A DNA stretch of 64,000 nucleotides from positions 10,759 through 74,758 of the forward strand of contig JBKHCS010000003.1 in assembly GCA_046541715.1 (NCBI GenBank). The letters are read 5' to 3'. A model generated the notes under the pieces. The model was not told the origin of the DNA. It saw nothing but the letters and a program-made list of their open reading frames with translations, and ran no database searches. Below, piece after piece: positions 18,593 through 53,659 of this stretch. Numbering within the stretch: the first letter of the stretch is position 1; every line of letters begins with the position of its first letter. The DNA is from Spirochaetaceae bacterium. GTDB lineage: Bacteria > Spirochaetota > Spirochaetia > DSM-27196 > PWMO01. Made by a program: the position numbers and the translations under genes.

Positions 18593-21127
18593 TTAGTCGA
18601 GAAGAGGATTCCCTTCCTCCGCTGAACGGTTTCCGTCCTCGGAACTCAACCCCGGGTCGAGATCCAGGGTAAAGTCGAGTTCGAAGGAACCGCGGTCAAA
18701 ATCCTCGCCGAGCTCCGGAGAGCCTGTGCTGAGTGAAAAATTCTGATTCGTGATGCTTCGCCGCAGCCTGTCCACGAGGACCGGCTGCTGCTCCCGCTCA
18801 AAGTCCTCGAGTCGATCGAACTCCTTCGGTTGCGTTCCCGACAGGAAGACCTCTTCGATTACGCGGCCGGTGTAGTTCTCCGTCGGCAGGAGGCCCGACC
18901 GGGCGGTAACGCGAACCCGGGTTATTCCGGAGGTCGGCTCGGGAAACTCCCGGGGCTCGAGGCCTTCGTGTATCTCTTTCATGTATCGGGCCCAGACGGG
19001 ACCCGCGGTTACGGCCCCGGTCTGGTTGGTTCCCAACGAGTTGCTGCCACCCCGGTCGAATCCGAACCAGATTGCCGTCGTGTAGTACGGGGTAAAGCCG
19101 AGGGTCCAGGCGTCGGCCCAATTCTGGGTGGTTCCGGTCTTTCCGGCGGTCGGCTGATCGAATCCGTCGACGAGCGATTCGGCCCACCTCAAGGTCCCGC
19201 TTTCGACGGTGGTCTGGAGCATATCGGTCATAATGTACGCCGTCTGGGGGCTGATAATCTGGGCGTCTTGGCCTTTCCGTTGCTGGTCTATCCGAAGGTC
19301 CTGTTCCGGCTCCATGATGATGCGGCCGTTGCGGTCCTCGATGTAGCGAATGCCGATGGGTACTACCTCTTGGCCTTGGTTCGCGATAGTGGCGAACGCC
19401 TTCGCCATCTCGATCGGGGCAACTTCGACGATGCCGAGACCCACGGGATACCGGCGTACCAGGTTACGACGCACCATGTCCTCTTCGGGAATGCCGAGGA
19501 GGCGCCGGGTGGTCGTGAGAGCCTCGGTAAACCCAACTCGCTCGAGAATTCTCAAGGAAGGCACGTTCATTGACTGCGCCAGGGCGTGCCGGACGAGGAC
19601 CGGCCCCTTCCATTCGCCCCGGTAGTTCTGAGGCGTGTAGGGGGTCCCGTCGTCGTTCCAGAAGACCACCGGAGAGTCGTAGATCATCGTGGCGGGTGTT
19701 ATGACTTTGTTCTCGATCGCCGCCGAGTAGTACAACGGTTTGAAGGAGGACCCCGGTTCTACGGAGGCGTCGACCGCCCGGTTGAACTGGTTCCGGGCTT
19801 CGAAGCGGCTACCTCCTACCATGGCCAGTATACGGCCCGTGCCGTTCTCCAGAGTAATCAGCGCCCCTTCGACGGTCGTGCGTCTTGCCTCGAGTTCGGT
19901 CGTCGCGTAGGACACCTGGACGGCGTCCCGAATCTCGGTGTCGTCGCTCCCGAAGAGGAGGGCGACGGCGTCGACGATCGGGTTGAGCTCTTCCCGGTAG
20001 TAGGATTTGGCCTCCTGGAGCTGCTTCGCGTTGCCGATTCGGAAGTCGCCGATATTGAACGCCAAGGACAAGAGATCTATGACCGGGACGAGATCGTTTC
20101 CCTCCGTCGACCGCCGAGAGGAGTTGCTCTGGTAGATCCGGTTTGCCGATTCGAGGCCCTCTTGCATGTAGCGGTCCGCCGCCGCCTGGTAGTCCAGGTC
20201 GAGGGTGGTGTAGACGGTAAACCCGTCCCGGTTTATGTCGAGGCTCCCGAGTAGCAGCTCGTTTTCCAGTTGATAGCGAACGTACTCGCTAAAGAAGGGG
20301 GCTCGGTCCTCCCGCTCAAAGAACGCCGTCGAGGTGCTCGCCCGCGTGAAATCGTAGTTGCTCCAGTACGCCTCGAATGATTCGTCGACCCGGGACTGGG
20401 TGGTGTATCCCAGCTCGACCATCTGATCGAGGATTGTCCGTTGCATTCTCCGAGCCTCGTTCGGCCGACGTATCGGCGAGTAGAGCGACGGGTTGGCCAA
20501 CTGGATAACCAGAAGGGCCGATTCGGCGATGGTGATGTCCCGGGCCGAGTGGCCGAAGTAATACTGGCTTGCGGCTTCCACGCCGTAGTTTCCATGACCG
20601 AAGAACATTGTGTTCAGGTACTTCTCGAGAATCTCGTACTTGGTCCAGTGCCGTTCGAGTTGTAGGGCCCACCAAAGCTCCCGGAGCTTCCGAGTTACCG
20701 AAAACTCGCTTCGGTCGGCGTAAAGGTGGCCCGCAAGCTGTTGCGTAAGGGTACTTCCGCCGCCGGAGTAGGAACCCCTCAACAGGTCGAAGGCCGCCTT
20801 TGAAGTCCGGACGAAGTCGAATCCGTTGTGATCGAAGAATCGCCTGTCTTCCCGGGTAATCAGGGCGTAGATAAGATGCCTCGGAAGCTCGTCGATCGTA
20901 ACGAGCTCCCGGTTTTCATCCGAAAAGAACTCGGTAATCAGGCGGCCTTTGACATCCAGAATCTCGGATGGGAGCGCCGCAACTTGAGTTCCGACGCTCT
21001 CGAGGTCGCCGACGTTTCTCACGGAGGCTATGGCTAATCCGGTCGTAATCCCGAGGGTCAGCGCCATCGCCCCGGCGACGGCAAGGGCAACTCGGAGAAC
21101 CACCCGGCGTTTTCTCTTTGGACTCAT
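18593..21127 (-). CDS. mrcA: class A penicillin-binding protein (PBP1A-type transglycosylase/transpeptidase)
   Basis: GT51 motifs (REDRRFFDHNGFD, GGSTLTQQLA) and transpeptidase SSFKP (SxxK). N-terminal TM anchor. Confidence 0.9.
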   Translation of the reverse strand: MSPKRKRRVVLRVALAVAGAMALTLGITTGLAIASVRNVGDLESVGTQVAALPSEILDVKGRLITEFFSDENRELVTIDELPRHLIYALITREDRRFFDHNGFDFVRTSKAAFDLLRGSYSGGGSTLTQQLAGHLYADRSEFSVTRKLRELWWALQLERHWTKYEILEKYLNTMFFGHGNYGVEAASQYYFGHSARDITIAESALLVIQLANPSLYSPIRRPNEARRMQRTILDQMVELGYTTQSRVDESFEAYWSNYDFTRASTSTAFFEREDRAPFFSEYVRYQLENELLLGSLDINRDGFTVYTTLDLDYQAAADRYMQEGLESANRIYQSNSSRRSTEGNDLVPVIDLLSLAFNIGDFRIGNAKQLQEAKSYYREELNPIVDAVALLFGSDDTEIRDAVQVSYATTELEARRTTVEGALITLENGTGRILAMVGGSRFEARNQFNRAVDASVEPGSSFKPLYYSAAIENKVITPATMIYDSPVVFWNDDGTPYTPQNYRGEWKGPVLVRHALAQSMNVPSLRILERVGFTEALTTTRRLLGIPEEDMVRRNLVRRYPVGLGIVEVAPIEMAKAFATIANQGQEVVPIGIRYIEDRNGRIIMEPEQDLRIDQQRKGQDAQIISPQTAYIMTDMLQTTVESGTLRWAESLVDGFDQPTAGKTGTTQNWADAWTLGFTPYYTTAIWFGFDRGGSNSLGTNQTGAVTAGPVWARYMKEIHEGLEPREFPEPTSGITRVRVTARSGLLPTENYTGRVIEEVFLSGTQPKEFDRLEDFEREQQPVLVDRLRRSITNQNFSLSTGSPELGEDFDRGSFELDFTLDLDPGLSSEDGNRSAEEGNPLLD

Positions 21128-21134
21128 CAGGGGT

Positions 21135-21164
21135 AGGGTAGGGAGAGCCGCAAAGCTTTGTCAA
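21135..21164 (-). promoter_or_regulatory. sigma70-type promoter for mrcA (TTGACA-N18-TACCCT), 7 nt before the ATG
   Basis: On the minus strand: TTGACAaagctttgcggctctcccTACCCTacccctgATG. No SD. Confidence 0.4.
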
Positions 21165-21169
21165 GCGAG

Positions 21170-21200
21170 AAAAAAAGAGGGCCGGCCAAAAGGCCGGCCC
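21170..21200 (-). terminator. intrinsic terminator (GGGCCGGCC-UUUU-GGCCGGCCC followed by U7)
   Basis: Perfect 9-bp GC stem, 4-nt loop and a 7-nt T run on the minus strand. Ends the 28103->21305 operon. Confidence 0.8.
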
Positions 21201-45327: not shown

Positions 45328-45398
45328 TTCCCGGTTGTGTAATGGTAGCACCGCAGATTCTGGCTCTGCTAGTGGGGGTTCGAATCCTCCCCGGGAAG
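45328..45398 (+). tRNA. tRNA-Gln (anticodon CUG)
   Basis: Manual cloverleaf: acceptor TTCCCGG/CCGGGAA (U1-A72, G73), anticodon stem GCAGA/TCTGC with loop TTCTGGC, T arm GGGGG-TTCGAAT-CCTCC. Confidence 0.85.
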
Positions 45399-45403
45399 CG
45401 GAA

Positions 45404-45475
45404 GGCCCCTTCGTCTATCGGCTAGGACGGTAGATTCTCAGTCTACAAAGAGGGGTTCGATTCCCCTAGGGGCTA
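45404..45475 (+). tRNA. tRNA-Glu (anticodon CUC)
   Basis: Manual cloverleaf: acceptor GGCCCCT/AGGGGCT (G1-U72 wobble), anticodon stem GTAGA/TCTAC with loop TTCTCAG, T arm AGGGG-TTCGATT-CCCCT. Confidence 0.85.
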
Positions 45476-50046: not shown

Positions 50047-50072
50047 TGCCTCCGTTAGGCTGATGTCTCCGT
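50039..50072. repeat. 17-nt tandem duplication (TAGGCTGATG[C/T]CTCCGT x2) spanning the convergent carB and cimA stops
   Basis: Read directly; 16 of 17 positions identical. Confidence 0.9.
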
Positions 50073-51644
50073 CGCCTCGGCGACGAAGTTGTTGTAGTAG
50101 TACTCCATACTATCAACCAGAGCCTCCCAGGAGGCCTCGACGATGTTCTCGTGAACGCCGACGGTGTCCCAGGATTGGGTGCCGTCACTGGAAGTAATAA
50201 AGACCCGGACCTTGGCTGCGGCGTGGGATTCGGGGTTCAGCACCCGAACCCGGTAGTCGATCAGGCTGATCGTCCGGAGAAAGGGGTAGAGCGGTTCCAG
50301 GGCGTCCCGGAGCGCGTGGTCGAGGGTCTCGACGGGACCGATCCCCACGGCGGCTCCCATCAGCTCTTGAGCTCCCGAGGCGGTCATAAAGATCCGTCCG
50401 ACGGTTTTCGACGGCGTTTGGCTGCTCTTGAAGGACTCTAGATGATAGTTCTTTAGCTCCATCAACGGCTGATACCGCCCGAGACTCCGGCGCATCAAGA
50501 GGTCGAAAGACGCCTCAGCCGCTTCGTATTCGTAGCCTTCGTTCTCCCGAGTCTTGAGCACCTGGATGAGCTCCCCGACGATGGGGGAGGCTTTTTCGTA
50601 CTCGCCGTACTTTCTGATTTTTTCGAGAATCGTCGATTTACCCGCAAGCTCGCTCAAGAGGATCTTGCGTTTGTTTCCCACGAGAGCCGCGTCGGTGTGT
50701 TCCATGAGGTAGTCCGCCTTGGCCAAGACGTCGGCGTGCTGCCCCGCCTTGTGGCTGAACGCCGCCTCCCCGACGTAGGGTTGCCGCTTGTCGGGAATGA
50801 TGTTGGCCTTCTCGGCTACGTATCGCGACAGGAGCGTTAGATGCTCGAGCTGCGCCGCCATGGCCGGCTTGAGCCCCATCTTGATCACGGCGTTCGGAAC
50901 GAAGACGCAGAGGTTGGCGTTTCCCGACCGCTCTCCCCAACCGTTTATGGTGCCCTGAATATGGATTGCCCCGGCATCTACCGCCGCGAGGGAGTTGGCT
51001 ACCGCGGTCCCGCAGTCGTTGTGAAAGTGGCCTCCGAGGGGGCCGAGGTCCGGCTGGGGGAGGGCGTTCATGATGGAGGTTACCTCCGCCGGCAGGGTGC
51101 CCCCGTTGGTGTCGCAGAGAACCAGAACGTCGGCCCCTGCTTCGGTTCCTCGGCGGAGCACCTGTAGGGCGTAGTCCGGGTCGTCCTTGTAGCCGTCGAA
51201 AAAATGCTCCAAGTCGAAGACGACCTCCCGGCCCTCGTCCTTGAGAAACTTTATCGAGTCGTAGACCATGTTCAGGTTCTCTTCGTAGGTCGTCTGGAGC
51301 ACCTTGTCGACGTGGGCCTTCCAGGTCTTTCCGACCACGACAACCGCCGGCGTTTCCGCCGCCAGAATGGCCCGGATATTCGGGTCGGCGTCCGCCTTGG
51401 TGTTGGGTTTCCGGGTCGACCCGAAAGCCGCCACCCGGGCGTGCTCGAAGTGCTCGTGGCGCACCCGTTCGAAGAAAGCCGCTTCTTTCTCGTTCGAGGC
51501 GGGGAATCCCCCCTCGATGTAGTCGATGCGCATTTCGTCTAGCTTGTGGGCGATCTGGAGCTTGTCCTCCAGCGTGTAGCTGATGCCTGTTCCCTGCATT
51601 CCGTCCCGAAGGGTCGTATCAAAGACGAATAGCTGTTTCTCCAC
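50055..51644 (-). CDS. cimA: (R)-citramalate synthase (LeuA/CimA family)
   Basis: FDTTLRDGMQG with the HMGL-like barrel and a C-terminal regulatory domain. At 529 aa it matches the long CimA type as I recall it. GTG start preceded by AGGAG. Confidence 0.75.
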   Translation of the reverse strand: MEKQLFVFDTTLRDGMQGTGISYTLEDKLQIAHKLDEMRIDYIEGGFPASNEKEAAFFERVRHEHFEHARVAAFGSTRKPNTKADADPNIRAILAAETPAVVVVGKTWKAHVDKVLQTTYEENLNMVYDSIKFLKDEGREVVFDLEHFFDGYKDDPDYALQVLRRGTEAGADVLVLCDTNGGTLPAEVTSIMNALPQPDLGPLGGHFHNDCGTAVANSLAAVDAGAIHIQGTINGWGERSGNANLCVFVPNAVIKMGLKPAMAAQLEHLTLLSRYVAEKANIIPDKRQPYVGEAAFSHKAGQHADVLAKADYLMEHTDAALVGNKRKILLSELAGKSTILEKIRKYGEYEKASPIVGELIQVLKTRENEGYEYEAAEASFDLLMRRSLGRYQPLMELKNYHLESFKSSQTPSKTVGRIFMTASGAQELMGAAVGIGPVETLDHALRDALEPLYPFLRTISLIDYRVRVLNPESHAAAKVRVFITSSDGTQSWDTVGVHENIVEASWEALVDSMEYYYNNFVAEATETSA

Positions 51645-51690
51645 CGTTCTCTCCTTTCACAGGCTTTGCCCGACCCGGTTGGGAAGGCCT

Positions 51691-51722
51691 AAAAAAAGGC
51701 CGCCCCTGCAGGAAGGACGGCC
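51691..51722 (-). terminator. intrinsic terminator inside the cimA leader (attenuator)
   Basis: Minus strand GGCCGTCCT-TCCTGCA-GGGGCGGCC followed by U7, with the U run ending 46 nt upstream of the cimA GTG in the same orientation. Confidence 0.65.
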
Positions 51723-51745
51723 TGATAGTCGCGCTACGTTCGGCG

Positions 51746-51844
51746 CTAAGCCCGCTGCACTTCCTGCCTGGTGCCTCCAGGCGGAATAATGAGACCGATA
51801 ATCTCGATAGCAGCAGTAAGGCATAGGGCCTTGGCTCGTTTCAC
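51746..51844 (-). CDS. candidate Ile-rich leader peptide MKRAKALCLTAAIEIIGLIIPPGGTRQEVQRA
   Basis: 32 codons with 5 Ile and 1 Leu within 8 consecutive codons. Lies between a promoter and the terminator. GTG start without an SD. Confidence 0.4.
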   Translation of the reverse strand: MKRAKALCLTAAIEIIGLIIPPGGTRQEVQRA

Positions 51845-51851
51845 GGGTTAG

Positions 51852-51881
51852 AGAGTAGTCAAACTTTCATGTCGGTGTCAA
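51852..51881 (-). promoter_or_regulatory. sigma70-type promoter for the cimA leader (TTGACA-N18-TACTCT)
   Basis: The -10 ends 7 nt before the leader GTG at 51844. Confidence 0.45.
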
Positions 51882-51952
51882 CTGAGTCTTGACAACGCAA
51901 GACGACAAACTTGAGAGTCAAACTCTTCCCGTGGTAAGCTAAAGGAAGAAGA

Positions 51953-53659
51953 ATGGGAGATTCTGAAGTTTTTGATATCCTCGCACGACAGCTGACCCAT
52001 CAAGAGCGGCGAGACATGCTCGATCGGCTCAACCTCGAGGGCCTCGACGACATTGCGCCTCCTGAGGAAGACGATCGGCCCCCGGAAACCGTCGACCCTC
52101 AAAAGGAGTTCGAGAGCTTTGGCTTCTTCCGGCGTCTAATGGTCTATCTTCAGGCCATCATCGCGGGACGTCCGAAGGAGGAGGTCGTTATCGATCTTCT
52201 CCTCAAGGAGCTCTCGAAGGAGATTCAGGCCGAGCGTCGTGACATCGTCGATTTTCGCCGGGGCCTCGCGCTGCGCCCCTTTGCCCAGGAGCTCGAAGAC
52301 ATCGGCGATGCGGTCGAGCGCCTGAGCCGTGCTCTTACCGGCATCGAGTCGGTTAATCCCGGGGTGCTGTCGGCGGTCATCCTCGGGATAGCTTCCCCGG
52401 ACATCTACTCCCGGTTGCTCATGGAGACCGACCCCTTCGTCGTGGCGGAAGACGAATCGGAGCTGCCCCCCTTTCAGGTCAAGAAGCGCTGCCTCCGGAA
52501 TCTCGACGACGGGCTCCTCTTACTTCCCACGGAGCTGCAGGAGCGCATTTCTTCAGACGAGATGGCACTCTCGGCACTGAAACGTCTGATTCGTCTCGAT
52601 CTATCCCCGGCTCTCCGGCCCTTCGCAGAAGGCGGAACGACCGACGCGCCCCTCCATACCCTCAAGCAGTCGATTGTCGATATCGCCGAACGTTTCCACC
52701 GACGGCAATTCGTCCCTTCGGATCGGCTCCTCAAGGCTATCTACCTGATTCTGAAGCGGACCGAATCCTCGGAGGAACAGATTCCTCCGGATGACTGGGC
52801 CCGCCACGTTACGATGCTCCTGCGGCGTCTGGTGGACCTCCGGGAAGGGATACCCTTTACCCGCCTTGCCCGGTACCTCCGGAGAGAGCTCCACTACGTC
52901 CCCCAGGGCCCCGAATCCCCGGGAGACTGGACGGCGCATCTGAAGCGATTCTGGACCGGCCGACTGGAAAAGCAGTATCAGGCCTTTGTCGCCGAGGAAA
53001 AGAAGCGCGCGATTCTGCTCGAGGCTTCCGAGTGGATAACCACGAACAAGTTTGCCGGCTATCCCGCAGTCGATCCGGGGGATACGGGAACCCATGCCTT
53101 CTCCGTGGCGATTCTCCAGGCGGTCCTTAGAAAGCTCTTTGCGGGTGAGGAGGCCCGGGCCCTCAAAGCGCTCTTGATCGAGGGAGACTTCTACAAGGAA
53201 CAGAACCGTGCCGATTTTACCGACGCCTACAACGGGATCGCTCGCCGCCTCGAAGAGATTTCGGATCTGGAGGCCCGGGTCGCACCGGAAGGGGGCTTGA
53301 CCCGGCGACTCGACGCGGTTGCCAGACAGGGAAGCTCCTTGGGTACCCGCCGGGCCCAGCGGAGGACTACCGTTCGCGCCTTCGATGCCGATGTGGAGAC
53401 CATTATCCGCAGGGGCTTGGAAGACATTCGGATACTCCACGACGTTCTCGCCGGTATCCTCTACGGCGAAATCGGGGGACACTACGACACCCTCGCGAAC
53501 CTCACCGACATCGCCGGCCGGGGGAACAAGGAGCTCATGGCGAAACTGGCGGATCTCGTTACCTTCCTCAAGAAATCGCAGGAAGTTATCGGGGGGGTTT
53601 TTGACGTCGAGCGGAACGCCCTCCGGCGTCTCGAAAACCTCGAGTCGCGTCTCGCCTAA
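51953..53659 (+). CDS. hypothetical protein (helical, 568 aa)
   Basis: Long ORF with protein-like composition, preceded by AGGAAG. No family recognised. Confidence 0.5.
   Translation: MGDSEVFDILARQLTHQERRDMLDRLNLEGLDDIAPPEEDDRPPETVDPQKEFESFGFFRRLMVYLQAIIAGRPKEEVVIDLLLKELSKEIQAERRDIVDFRRGLALRPFAQELEDIGDAVERLSRALTGIESVNPGVLSAVILGIASPDIYSRLLMETDPFVVAEDESELPPFQVKKRCLRNLDDGLLLLPTELQERISSDEMALSALKRLIRLDLSPALRPFAEGGTTDAPLHTLKQSIVDIAERFHRRQFVPSDRLLKAIYLILKRTESSEEQIPPDDWARHVTMLLRRLVDLREGIPFTRLARYLRRELHYVPQGPESPGDWTAHLKRFWTGRLEKQYQAFVAEEKKRAILLEASEWITTNKFAGYPAVDPGDTGTHAFSVAILQAVLRKLFAGEEARALKALLIEGDFYKEQNRADFTDAYNGIARRLEEISDLEARVAPEGGLTRRLDAVARQGSSLGTRRAQRRTTVRAFDADVETIIRRGLEDIRILHDVLAGILYGEIGGHYDTLANLTDIAGRGNKELMAKLADLVTFLKKSQEVIGGVFDVERNALRRLENLESRLA

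Follow-up and report, generated by a model that had tools for sequence, protein, structure and literature searches.

A predicted isoleucine-sensing, ribosome-mediated attenuator upstream of citramalate synthase in a spirochaete

Leader-peptide attenuation has been documented mostly in Proteobacteria, Actinobacteria and a small number of further groups, and RNA-level gene regulation in spirochaetes is, to our knowledge, poorly charted. We analyzed a 64,000-nucleotide (nt) stretch of a Spirochaetaceae genome (GenBank assembly GCA_046541715.1, contig JBKHCS010000003.1, positions 10,759 to 74,758; hereafter, the window), in which a short, isoleucine (Ile)-rich open reading frame (ORF) and a terminator precede cimA. 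The product of this gene, citramalate synthase, catalyzes the first committed step of isoleucine synthesis by the pyruvate route. The region has every attenuator feature that can be tested from sequence: a leader ORF, control codons, a terminator, a mutually exclusive antiterminator, and the spacing among them. We put the probability that it is a classical ribosome-mediated attenuator, predicted to sense charged tRNA-Ile and to control cimA, at about 85%. This reading draws on the sequence anatomy of the locus, its conservation, its codon bias, and the thermodynamic feasibility of both alternative structures.

Among described attenuators, the E. coli ilvGMEDA (ilvXGMEDA) leader, IlvL (MTALLRVISLVVISVVVIIIPPCGAALGRGKA), offers the nearest parallel in layout. 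An earlier, sequence-only reading of the window had cited this peptide, and both the sequence that it gave and the likeness drawn from it proved exact: the two leaders are 32 codons long, carry a cluster of branched-chain codons that ends in II-PP-x-G, and are identical at 9/32 positions, including I19, I20, P21, P22, G24 and A32. In both loci, a GC-rich stem follows the control codons and an intrinsic terminator lies just before the first structural gene, and the logic of read-through upon starvation and termination upon sufficiency would be common to the two. IlvL is multivalent, with five Ile, six valine (Val) and four leucine (Leu) codons, and has a leader 5′ untranslated region. In contrast, the window leader is Ile-specific, is apparently leaderless with a GTG start, and would control a single gene in a different branch of the pathway. 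We found no nucleotide similarity between IlvL and the window leader.

Leaderless precedents exist outside the Proteobacteria. The Corynebacterium glutamicum ilvBNC leader (MTIIRLVVVTARRLP) has no ribosome-binding site and its transcription starts 1 nt from the leader start codon, as verified experimentally (PMC11857589, citing Morbach et al. 2000). It also has branched-chain amino-acid control codons and a terminator/antiterminator/anti-antiterminator arrangement, both with counterparts in the window (for the anti-antiterminator, a candidate). The ilvBNC leader differs in being actinobacterial, in having 15 codons with mixed Ile, Val and Leu in a leader of ~290 nt, and in serving acetohydroxyacid synthase and isomeroreductase, whereas the window element is ~155 nt long, Ile-only, and would have cimA as its target. 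In Deinococcus deserti, 14 leader peptides on 5′-AUG or 5′-GUG transcripts were predicted from mapped starts; they are rich in the cognate amino acid and lie upstream of amino-acid biosynthesis and tRNA synthetase genes, and 5′-GUG leaderless starts are used in Deinococcus (PMC4007540). That system belongs to another phylum and to other genes, and its starts are mapped, whereas the start in the window follows from promoter geometry. The passages of PMC4007540 consulted contain no cimA case, the supplementary table of 14 leaders lying outside this check. Leader-peptide attenuation beyond the Proteobacteria is also described for Actinobacteria (PMC1262725), Deinococcus (PMC4007540) and Staphylococcus aureus (PMC5794164). 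A spirochaete case, which the sequence-only reading expected to stand out, would extend this range without being a great surprise. Finally, T-box riboswitches (RF00230), known from branched-chain amino-acid genes of Firmicutes, also sense tRNA charging and switch between a terminator and an antiterminator, but they need no translation and carry a conserved T-box sequence and specifier loop.

Anatomy of the cimA leader

The features below are all on the minus strand and are given in the order in which they would be transcribed.

51876..51881, minus: putative −35 hexamer of the leader promoter, TTGACA, assigned from sequence and conservation.
51852..51857, minus: putative −10 hexamer, TACTCT, N18 after the −35; a weak, 3/6 match to TATAAT.
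51746..51844, minus: leader ORF MKRAKALCLTAAIEIIGLIIPPGGTRQEVQRA, 32 codons plus TAG; GTG at 51844, 7 nt past the −10, and TAG at 51748..51746.
51785..51808, minus: candidate control codons Ile13, Ile15, Ile16, Ile19 and Ile20 (ATC, ATT, ATC, ATT, ATT), in the peptide segment IEIIGLII.
51766..51782, minus: hairpin GCCUGG-AGGCA-CCAGGC (region 1:2), directly after the Ile codons; GCCTGG at 51782..51777 pairs with CCAGGC at 51771..51766.
51760..51767, minus: region 2 (GCAGGAAG), which forms the antiterminator's 5′ strand and extends from 17 nt past the last Ile codon to 11 nt short of the stop codon.
51708..51715, minus: region 3, CUUCCUGC (DNA CTTCCTGC), within the terminator's 5′ arm and loop.
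51691..51723, minus: intrinsic terminator AGGCCGUCCUU-CCUGC-AGGGGCGGCCU plus U7; stem at 51723..51697, ~−19 kcal/mol.
50055..51644, minus: cimA, citramalate synthase, 529 amino acids; GTG at 51644 and Shine-Dalgarno AAGGAG at 51656..51651.

Much of this layout had been described in the sequence-only reading, and everything that it named was found in place, with corrections only to the terminator stem and to the strength of the −10. The TTGACA-N18-TACTCT promoter is present upstream of the leader and its layout recurs in related loci; the 32-codon ORF is borne out by the sequence and the ORF map, with five Ile codons and one Leu codon among codons 13–20 (I=5, L=3 and V=1 over the whole leader); and the GCCTGG/CCAGGC hairpin was recovered together with the segment that pairs into the terminator. 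This segment, GCAGGAAG, is perfectly complementary to region 3 over 8 bp, and region 3 can pair alternatively with region 2, forming the antiterminator, or with the 3′ arm of the terminator. The 3′ arm of the region 1:2 hairpin shares its last two bases with the start of the antiterminator strand, and structural modeling suggests that this hairpin may be a pause or anti-antiterminator element. As for the terminator, the U7 tract and the 46 nt from the T-run to the cimA GTG stood, whereas the 9-bp stem did not: our scan counts 11 pairs, of which two are G·U and seven are G-C, followed by seven T ending at 51691.

The downstream gene was also identified correctly. CimA matches the TIGR00977 equivalog with 622 bits (cutoff, 450) and has the HMGL-like and LeuA allosteric domains in Pfam. 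The ORF map shows cimA as monocistronic and convergent with carB.

One further ORF overlaps the leader. It has 55 codons, starts with ATG (MPYCCYRDYRS..., 51657..51824, minus), lies in another frame and crosses the terminator; we do not regard it as a real gene because its ATG is lost in a close relative (L081; GGCCCTGAGCC). When the rest of the window was scanned for further amino-acid-rich leader ORFs with terminators, no other convincing case appeared.

Leader turnover and conserved switch elements in seven spirochaete loci

We compared the window with six other distinct spirochaete loci. An exact-protein look-up returned no record of the window's exact CimA protein. A search for homologous proteins found relatives with 73–94% identity, and contigs were recovered for several of them; the closest relatives in a scan of genome collections were 60–69% identical, and a metagenome scan added few close relatives among the matches listed. 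Labels of the CimA relatives read Alkalispirochaetaceae or Spirochaetaceae. The seven loci share the DUF5312/cimA/carB synteny as far as their flanks are covered, and all loci with this synteny carry a leader. The loci are listed with CimA identity to the window, leader peptide, and version of the peptide core.

Window: leader MKRAKALCLTAAIEIIGLIIPPGGTRQEVQRA; core version 1, AIEIIGLIIPPGG.
L081: CimA 94% identical; leader MKTKKALSLLAAIEIIGLIIPPGGTRQEVQRA; core version 1.
L082: CimA 87% identical; leader MLKRSSLQIVVAIEIIGLIIPPGGSRQEAIRA; core version 1.
L166: CimA 76% identical; leader MNKSKVSVQHVNLPAAILAMIIIIISRCAPQEA; core version 2, AAILAMIIIIIS.
L170: CimA 75% identical; leader MVANNGPTRSTGLIIGIIRDCQGAQEE; core version 3, TGLIIGIIRD.
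L084/85: CimA 75% identical; leader (MVVSV)KKMSFATRIISLLISLLIISIIKGAPERGA; core version 4, RIISLLISLLIISII.
L176-179: CimA 73% identical; leader MAGFCSQRPTIAAASILISIIIVHDA; core version 5, ASILISIIIV.

An open frame of 26–33 codons lies at the same place in all seven loci despite turnover of its sequence, so the loss of ORF conservation that the sequence-only reading had named as damaging was not seen. L081 and L082 keep the frame and the 32-codon length with a diverged N-terminus. The five versions of the peptide are mutually unalignable, yet each holds a tight run with 4–7 Ile, and no residue is more frequent than Ile in any of them. Because the Ile runs are kept across peptides that cannot be aligned, selection appears to act on codon content and not on the peptide product.

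This turnover bears directly on the idea that the product of the locus is a small hydrophobic peptide with a function of its own, made from a short transcript that would end at the terminator while cimA is transcribed independently. The middle of the peptide is indeed hydrophobic and the terminator is strong, and leader peptides or attenuator RNAs with functions in trans are known (peTrpL, rnTrpL; PMC7298713, PMC6614838). We nevertheless regard the idea as very improbable. The peptide sequence is not conserved, occurring in five unrelated versions with no Pfam match, and its hydrophobic stretch is down to 6 residues in L170; the 46 nt between the U-tract and the cimA start contain no promoter-like site; and nothing would explain the antiterminator complementarity or why it keeps its place relative to the stop codon. 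A small membrane protein was rejected on similar grounds, namely the divergence of the peptide and, in L170, a hydrophobic stretch that is too short.

The density of Ile codons is far from what base composition would give. The window has a G+C content of 60.6%, and Ile makes up 5.5% of three neighboring proteins. Five Ile in 8 codons was reached in 0/5000 dinucleotide shuffles of the window leader, counting any open frame of at least 15 codons; for the five leaders tested, the shuffles that matched the observed Ile density numbered 0, 8, 4, 48 and 84 of 5000 (4–84 for the four leaders other than the window's). In a scan of the sequence upstream of cimA in 166 distinct cases, a short Ile-rich ORF with a terminator behind it was found 10 times in the forward orientation and 0 times in the reverse complement, and the same scan for other residues gave Leu 2 and Ser 1, leaving Ile far ahead. 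A chance co-occurrence of ORF, Ile cluster and terminator could point to the loose terminator-like matches, which are as frequent as in shuffles (2 vs. 1.8 expected over 1.5 kb). However, the arrangement recurs in five independent versions, and together with the shuffles and the one-sided control scan this leaves chance with a negligible probability; the comparative data effectively refute it.

The sequence-only reading had proposed to check the conservation of the Ile run and of PPxG. The Ile run is kept in all five versions, but the PPxG motif is not: PPxG and IIPPxG are absent from the other four spirochaete versions (L166, L170, L084 and L176). Because PPxG is not kept in these sister lineages, the resemblance to IlvL is probably convergence, an analogy and not homology. 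Codons of the form CCN (proline) and GGN (glycine) are complementary to each other and could build a GC-rich stem after AU-rich Ile codons, which may account for the shared PPxG.

P-P-G-G also follows straight after the Ile run in the window (51773..51784, minus), L081 and L082, and is not conserved in L166, L170, L084 and L176. PPG is a strong stalling motif that depends on EF-P. The P-P-G-G stretch could provide an extra, Ile-independent pause at a position where the ribosome would cover region 1.

Upstream of the leader, the register between promoter and start codon is fixed. TTGACA stands at a constant distance from the leader start codon in the window, L081, L082, L166, L170 and L084, with diverged spacers; GACTACTCT is kept in L081 and L082, and the −10 position is kept in the other loci. 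The register TTGACA-N18-hexamer-N7-(A/G)TG is identical in 6/7 distinct loci, with different spacers and hexamers, and is slightly off in L176, where the ATG falls 5 nt past the N18 hexamer or 7 nt past a CAAAAT hexamer at N16. ATG replaces GTG at the leader start in three lineages (L166 and L170 at the matching position, L176 near the −10). From this fixed register, the transcription start is predicted to coincide with the leader start codon or to precede it by 1 nt, and the leader mRNA is probably leaderless, judging by promoter geometry. The sequence-only reading had entered the GTG start, the leaderless position and the missing Shine-Dalgarno as caveats. The GTG is in place, with no Shine-Dalgarno upstream of it. 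Across the loci compared, the layout has the marks of a conserved design feature and is probably not a weakness. The fixed register makes the leader a further candidate for leaderless translation in a setting of tight transcription-translation coupling.

An alternative start was considered for L084, where an upstream ATG has an AAGGA Shine-Dalgarno; the GTG four codons downstream fits the conserved register, and both are possible. A separate occurrence of the same register, TTGACA-N18-TACCCT-N7-ATG, lies at window 21125..21200 (minus), directly past a terminator (GGGCCGGCCTTTTGGCCGGCCC then a T-run), and opens an ORF that begins MSPKRKRRVVLRVALAVAGAMALTLG and resembles a signal or transmembrane segment. 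With this second, identical register in the window, leaderless mRNAs may be common in this organism.

The two strands of the antiterminator are better conserved than the peptide. Strands of the GCAGGAAG type and terminator arms of the GGCCGUCCUUCCUGC type are kept in 7/7 loci, and the region 2:3 helix is 8–10 bp long in each. L084 shows a compensatory change from A-U to G-C (GCGGGGAG : CUUCCCGC), and G·U wobbles occur in the helix in L082, L084 and L170. For these counts the helices were anchored by hand; a MAFFT alignment of the switch region was not used, as MAFFT misaligned region 2 because spacer lengths vary. Homologous terminators are present in all related leaders (−19 to −32.5 kcal/mol), with stems that co-vary (e.g. 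GGCC/GGCC to GAGCC/GGCUC, and GUCC/GGAC to GUUC/GAAC). L081 and L082 also have the region 1:2 hairpin, with 7 bp in the latter. Across loci, region 2 starts 14–18 nt past the last Ile codon and ends 1–11 nt before the stop codon, overlapping the stop in L176. Its start thus falls just past the leading edge of an Ile-stalled ribosome, and its end falls inside the footprint of a terminating ribosome.

Conservation is highest in the terminator/antiterminator pair and in the leader's 3′ half, which would also suit an attenuator that binds a ligand, a protein or a tRNA (a riboswitch or T-box-like element), in which the pair is switched without translation and the ORF is incidental. The AIEIIGLIIPPGG core is nucleotide-identical in the window, L081 and L082, where constraint at the RNA level is possible, and the free leader RNA folds better than its shuffles (z = −2.9). 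Against this, no family in Rfam 15 matches the region when the whole window is searched at gathering thresholds. Relaxing the search to E ≤ 10 over 51500..52100 gave only weak, terminator-shaped partial matches (sX11, 25 bits vs. a gathering score of 70), and a search over 34 cimA loci gave only tRNAs. The T-box family RF00230 in particular was not matched at the gathering threshold or at E ≤ 10, and there is no conserved aptamer-like structure. Moreover, the 5′ half of the leader differs completely from lineage to lineage, yet the open frame is always kept along with an Ile run at its set distance before region 2, the stop codon is always at or just past region 2, and the Ile-specific codon bias in one frame would be left unexplained. 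We therefore consider a translation-independent attenuator unlikely.

Folding of the switch and a model for its action

Because attenuation is decided before the 3′ arm of the terminator is made, we folded the nascent RNA up to the terminator loop. In this nascent RNA, the antiterminator is the minimum free energy (MFE) structure. When the ribosome was placed on any Ile codon, the antiterminator formed in 6/6 leaders with −19 to −32 kcal/mol and occupied 8–12 nt of the terminator 5′ arm. When it was placed at the stop codon, the competing structure was worth only −2 to −5 kcal/mol. A footprint model (31 nt, with the RNA behind the ribosome left free) gave the same contrast: with the ribosome on the last Ile, the region 2:3 helix had 8/8 pairs in 5/6 leaders, and with the ribosome at the stop codon it had 0/8 pairs in 6/6. 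The alternative-structure folding suggested in the sequence-only reading thus came out as predicted, with an antiterminator upon stalling at Ile and no region 2:3 helix upon completion of the leader. Nascent folds of the window at an Ile13–16 stall show the GCCUGG/CCAGGC hairpin coexisting with a slightly shortened antiterminator. In full-length equilibrium folds with the ribosome at Ile19/20, the antiterminator is the MFE structure in the window, L081 and L082.

In the model that we infer from these data, for transcription start, leader translation, stalling, and termination or read-through alike, transcription would start at or just before the leader GTG and yield a leaderless mRNA. As a result, a ribosome could load the moment that the 5′ end is exposed. 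Under a shortage of Ile-tRNA, it would stall on the five Ile codons (51808..51785), with region 2 just past its footprint; the free region 2, GCAGGAAG, would pair with region 3, CUUCCUGC, once this is transcribed, and sequestration of the terminator 5′ arm would permit read-through into cimA. When Ile-tRNA is plentiful, the ribosome would reach the TAG, where its footprint would cover region 2 and the inner antiterminator stems. Region 3 would then pair with the 3′ arm of the terminator, and transcription would end at U7, 46 nt before cimA. Comparative and folding evidence both support the Ile-sensing, ribosome-mediated attenuation that the sequence-only reading had proposed.

Leader translation might instead affect cimA mainly by other routes (Rho-dependent termination, mRNA stability or translational coupling, for example), with the hairpin serving only as a pause or stability element. 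This would accord with the full-length MFE fold, in which the region past the terminator can pair with upstream sequence, and with equilibrium folds that favor the terminator in several homologues whatever the stalling. The hairpin and U7, however, form a canonical intrinsic terminator that is kept in every homologue, and cimA has a strong Shine-Dalgarno of its own, 46 nt downstream and outside the hairpin. An effect at another level is in our judgment very unlikely.

Several observations weigh against ribosome-mediated attenuation as set out here. All of the relatives are metagenome-assembled genomes or metagenome contigs. Covariation in the antiterminator is thin, amounting to one compensatory pair, because the helix is nearly invariant, and L166, L170, L084 and L176 lack the sequence of the region 1:2 hairpin, which is restricted to the window's own clade. 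A consensus promoter scan made no call at TTGACA-N18-TACTCT, whose −10 matches at only 3/6 positions; we accept the leader promoter because phylogenetic footprinting supports its layout. Leaderless mRNAs that begin with 5′-GUG are translated inefficiently in E. coli. In many related spirochaetes, cimA comes straight after leuA or a leuD-like gene (L089), and neither these loci nor L087, with only a short AT-rich spacer before cimA, has this leader directly upstream. Full-length equilibrium folds with a stalled ribosome are won by the very stable terminator in L166, L170 and L084; for this reason the model rests on a kinetic argument, namely that the antiterminator would form before the 3′ arm is made. 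Finally, the footprint model pairs the free 5′ end with the terminator arm over a long range in the window and L084, which is probably an artefact of equilibrium folding.

Wider occurrence and genomic context

Ile-rich cimA leaders also occur outside the spirochaetes. Five are clear, and L030, L077 and L114 are weaker candidates. Approximate positions of the clear cases are as follows.

L033:128-340, Desulfobacteraceae.
L041:86-290, a delta-proteobacterium.
L132:985-1160, metagenome contig.
L146:1003-1180, metagenome contig.
L161:1034-1180, metagenome contig.

As in the window, a short ORF just ahead of cimA contains an Ile run (e.g. IIISNIIIS, TIIIIM or GIIIIS) in these Desulfobacterota-like leaders. 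They carry a GGCCUGG-type antiterminator strand, which encodes peptide tails such as PGLV or GGLV and is complementary to the 5′ arm of a long terminator (14–18 bp). Unlike the window, they have an unrelated sequence and terminator, are longer, and often contain extra Leu runs. None of them matches Rfam 15. They look like a mutually related, uncatalogued class of attenuators. At roughly even odds, the two sets would make up an uncatalogued family of Ile-specific cimA attenuators, with an obligately leaderless form in Spirochaetota, in which the fixed register of −35, −10 and start codon would make transcription begin at the start codon itself, and a second, possibly independent, Desulfobacterota-like version. 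The parallel leaders suggest that this solution is widespread and not yet catalogued.

Full-text literature searches returned no cimA leader peptide and no amino-acid attenuation in spirochaetes; Lopatovskaya et al. 2010 (PMID 20198868) was not covered by them, and an earlier prediction is possible. On short upstream ORFs in Spirochaetales, PMC4833913 gives only statistics. The mechanism itself is known, and what would be new is the gene (cimA) and the phylum, for which we found no earlier report. If the reading as an uncatalogued family is correct, the leader would have no described predecessor as a ribosome-mediated amino-acid attenuator in Spirochaetota or as an RNA-level regulator of cimA, and it could also be a genomic marker that a TIGR00977 enzyme really works in Ile synthesis. 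It would extend the mechanism to a free-living spirochaete lineage close to Alkalispirochaetaceae, and would tie the citramalate pathway to the charging of Ile-tRNA, in addition to the allosteric domain of CimA. In practical terms, it could serve as a ready-made Ile-responsive switch and help to tell cimA from leuA in annotation.

A different arrangement of cimA is seen in L001, L002, L063, L083, L086, L088 and L167-L174, where the gene overlaps or abuts the end of a leuA-like gene in a leuA-cimA operon and lacks a promoter and leader of its own. Regulation of this operon type, if any, must lie upstream of leuA, beyond the flanks that were fetched.

The divergent neighbor of the leader in the window (51953..53659, plus) encodes a DUF5312 protein that is full-length (PF17239, 238 bits) and matches nothing in NCBIfam, and its pairing with cimA is kept in every leader-bearing locus with an annotated upstream flank. 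The gap of ~70 nt between the DUF5312 start and the leader −35 must hold a divergent promoter. On the other side of cimA, an adjacent pair of tRNA genes lies at window 45328..45475 (plus), ~1.1 kb upstream of carB. A tRNA pair lies just downstream of cimA in L082 (2589-2735) and L084 (3250-3397), where carB is not adjacent; because of this difference in the placement of the tRNA pair and carB, local synteny is only partly conserved.

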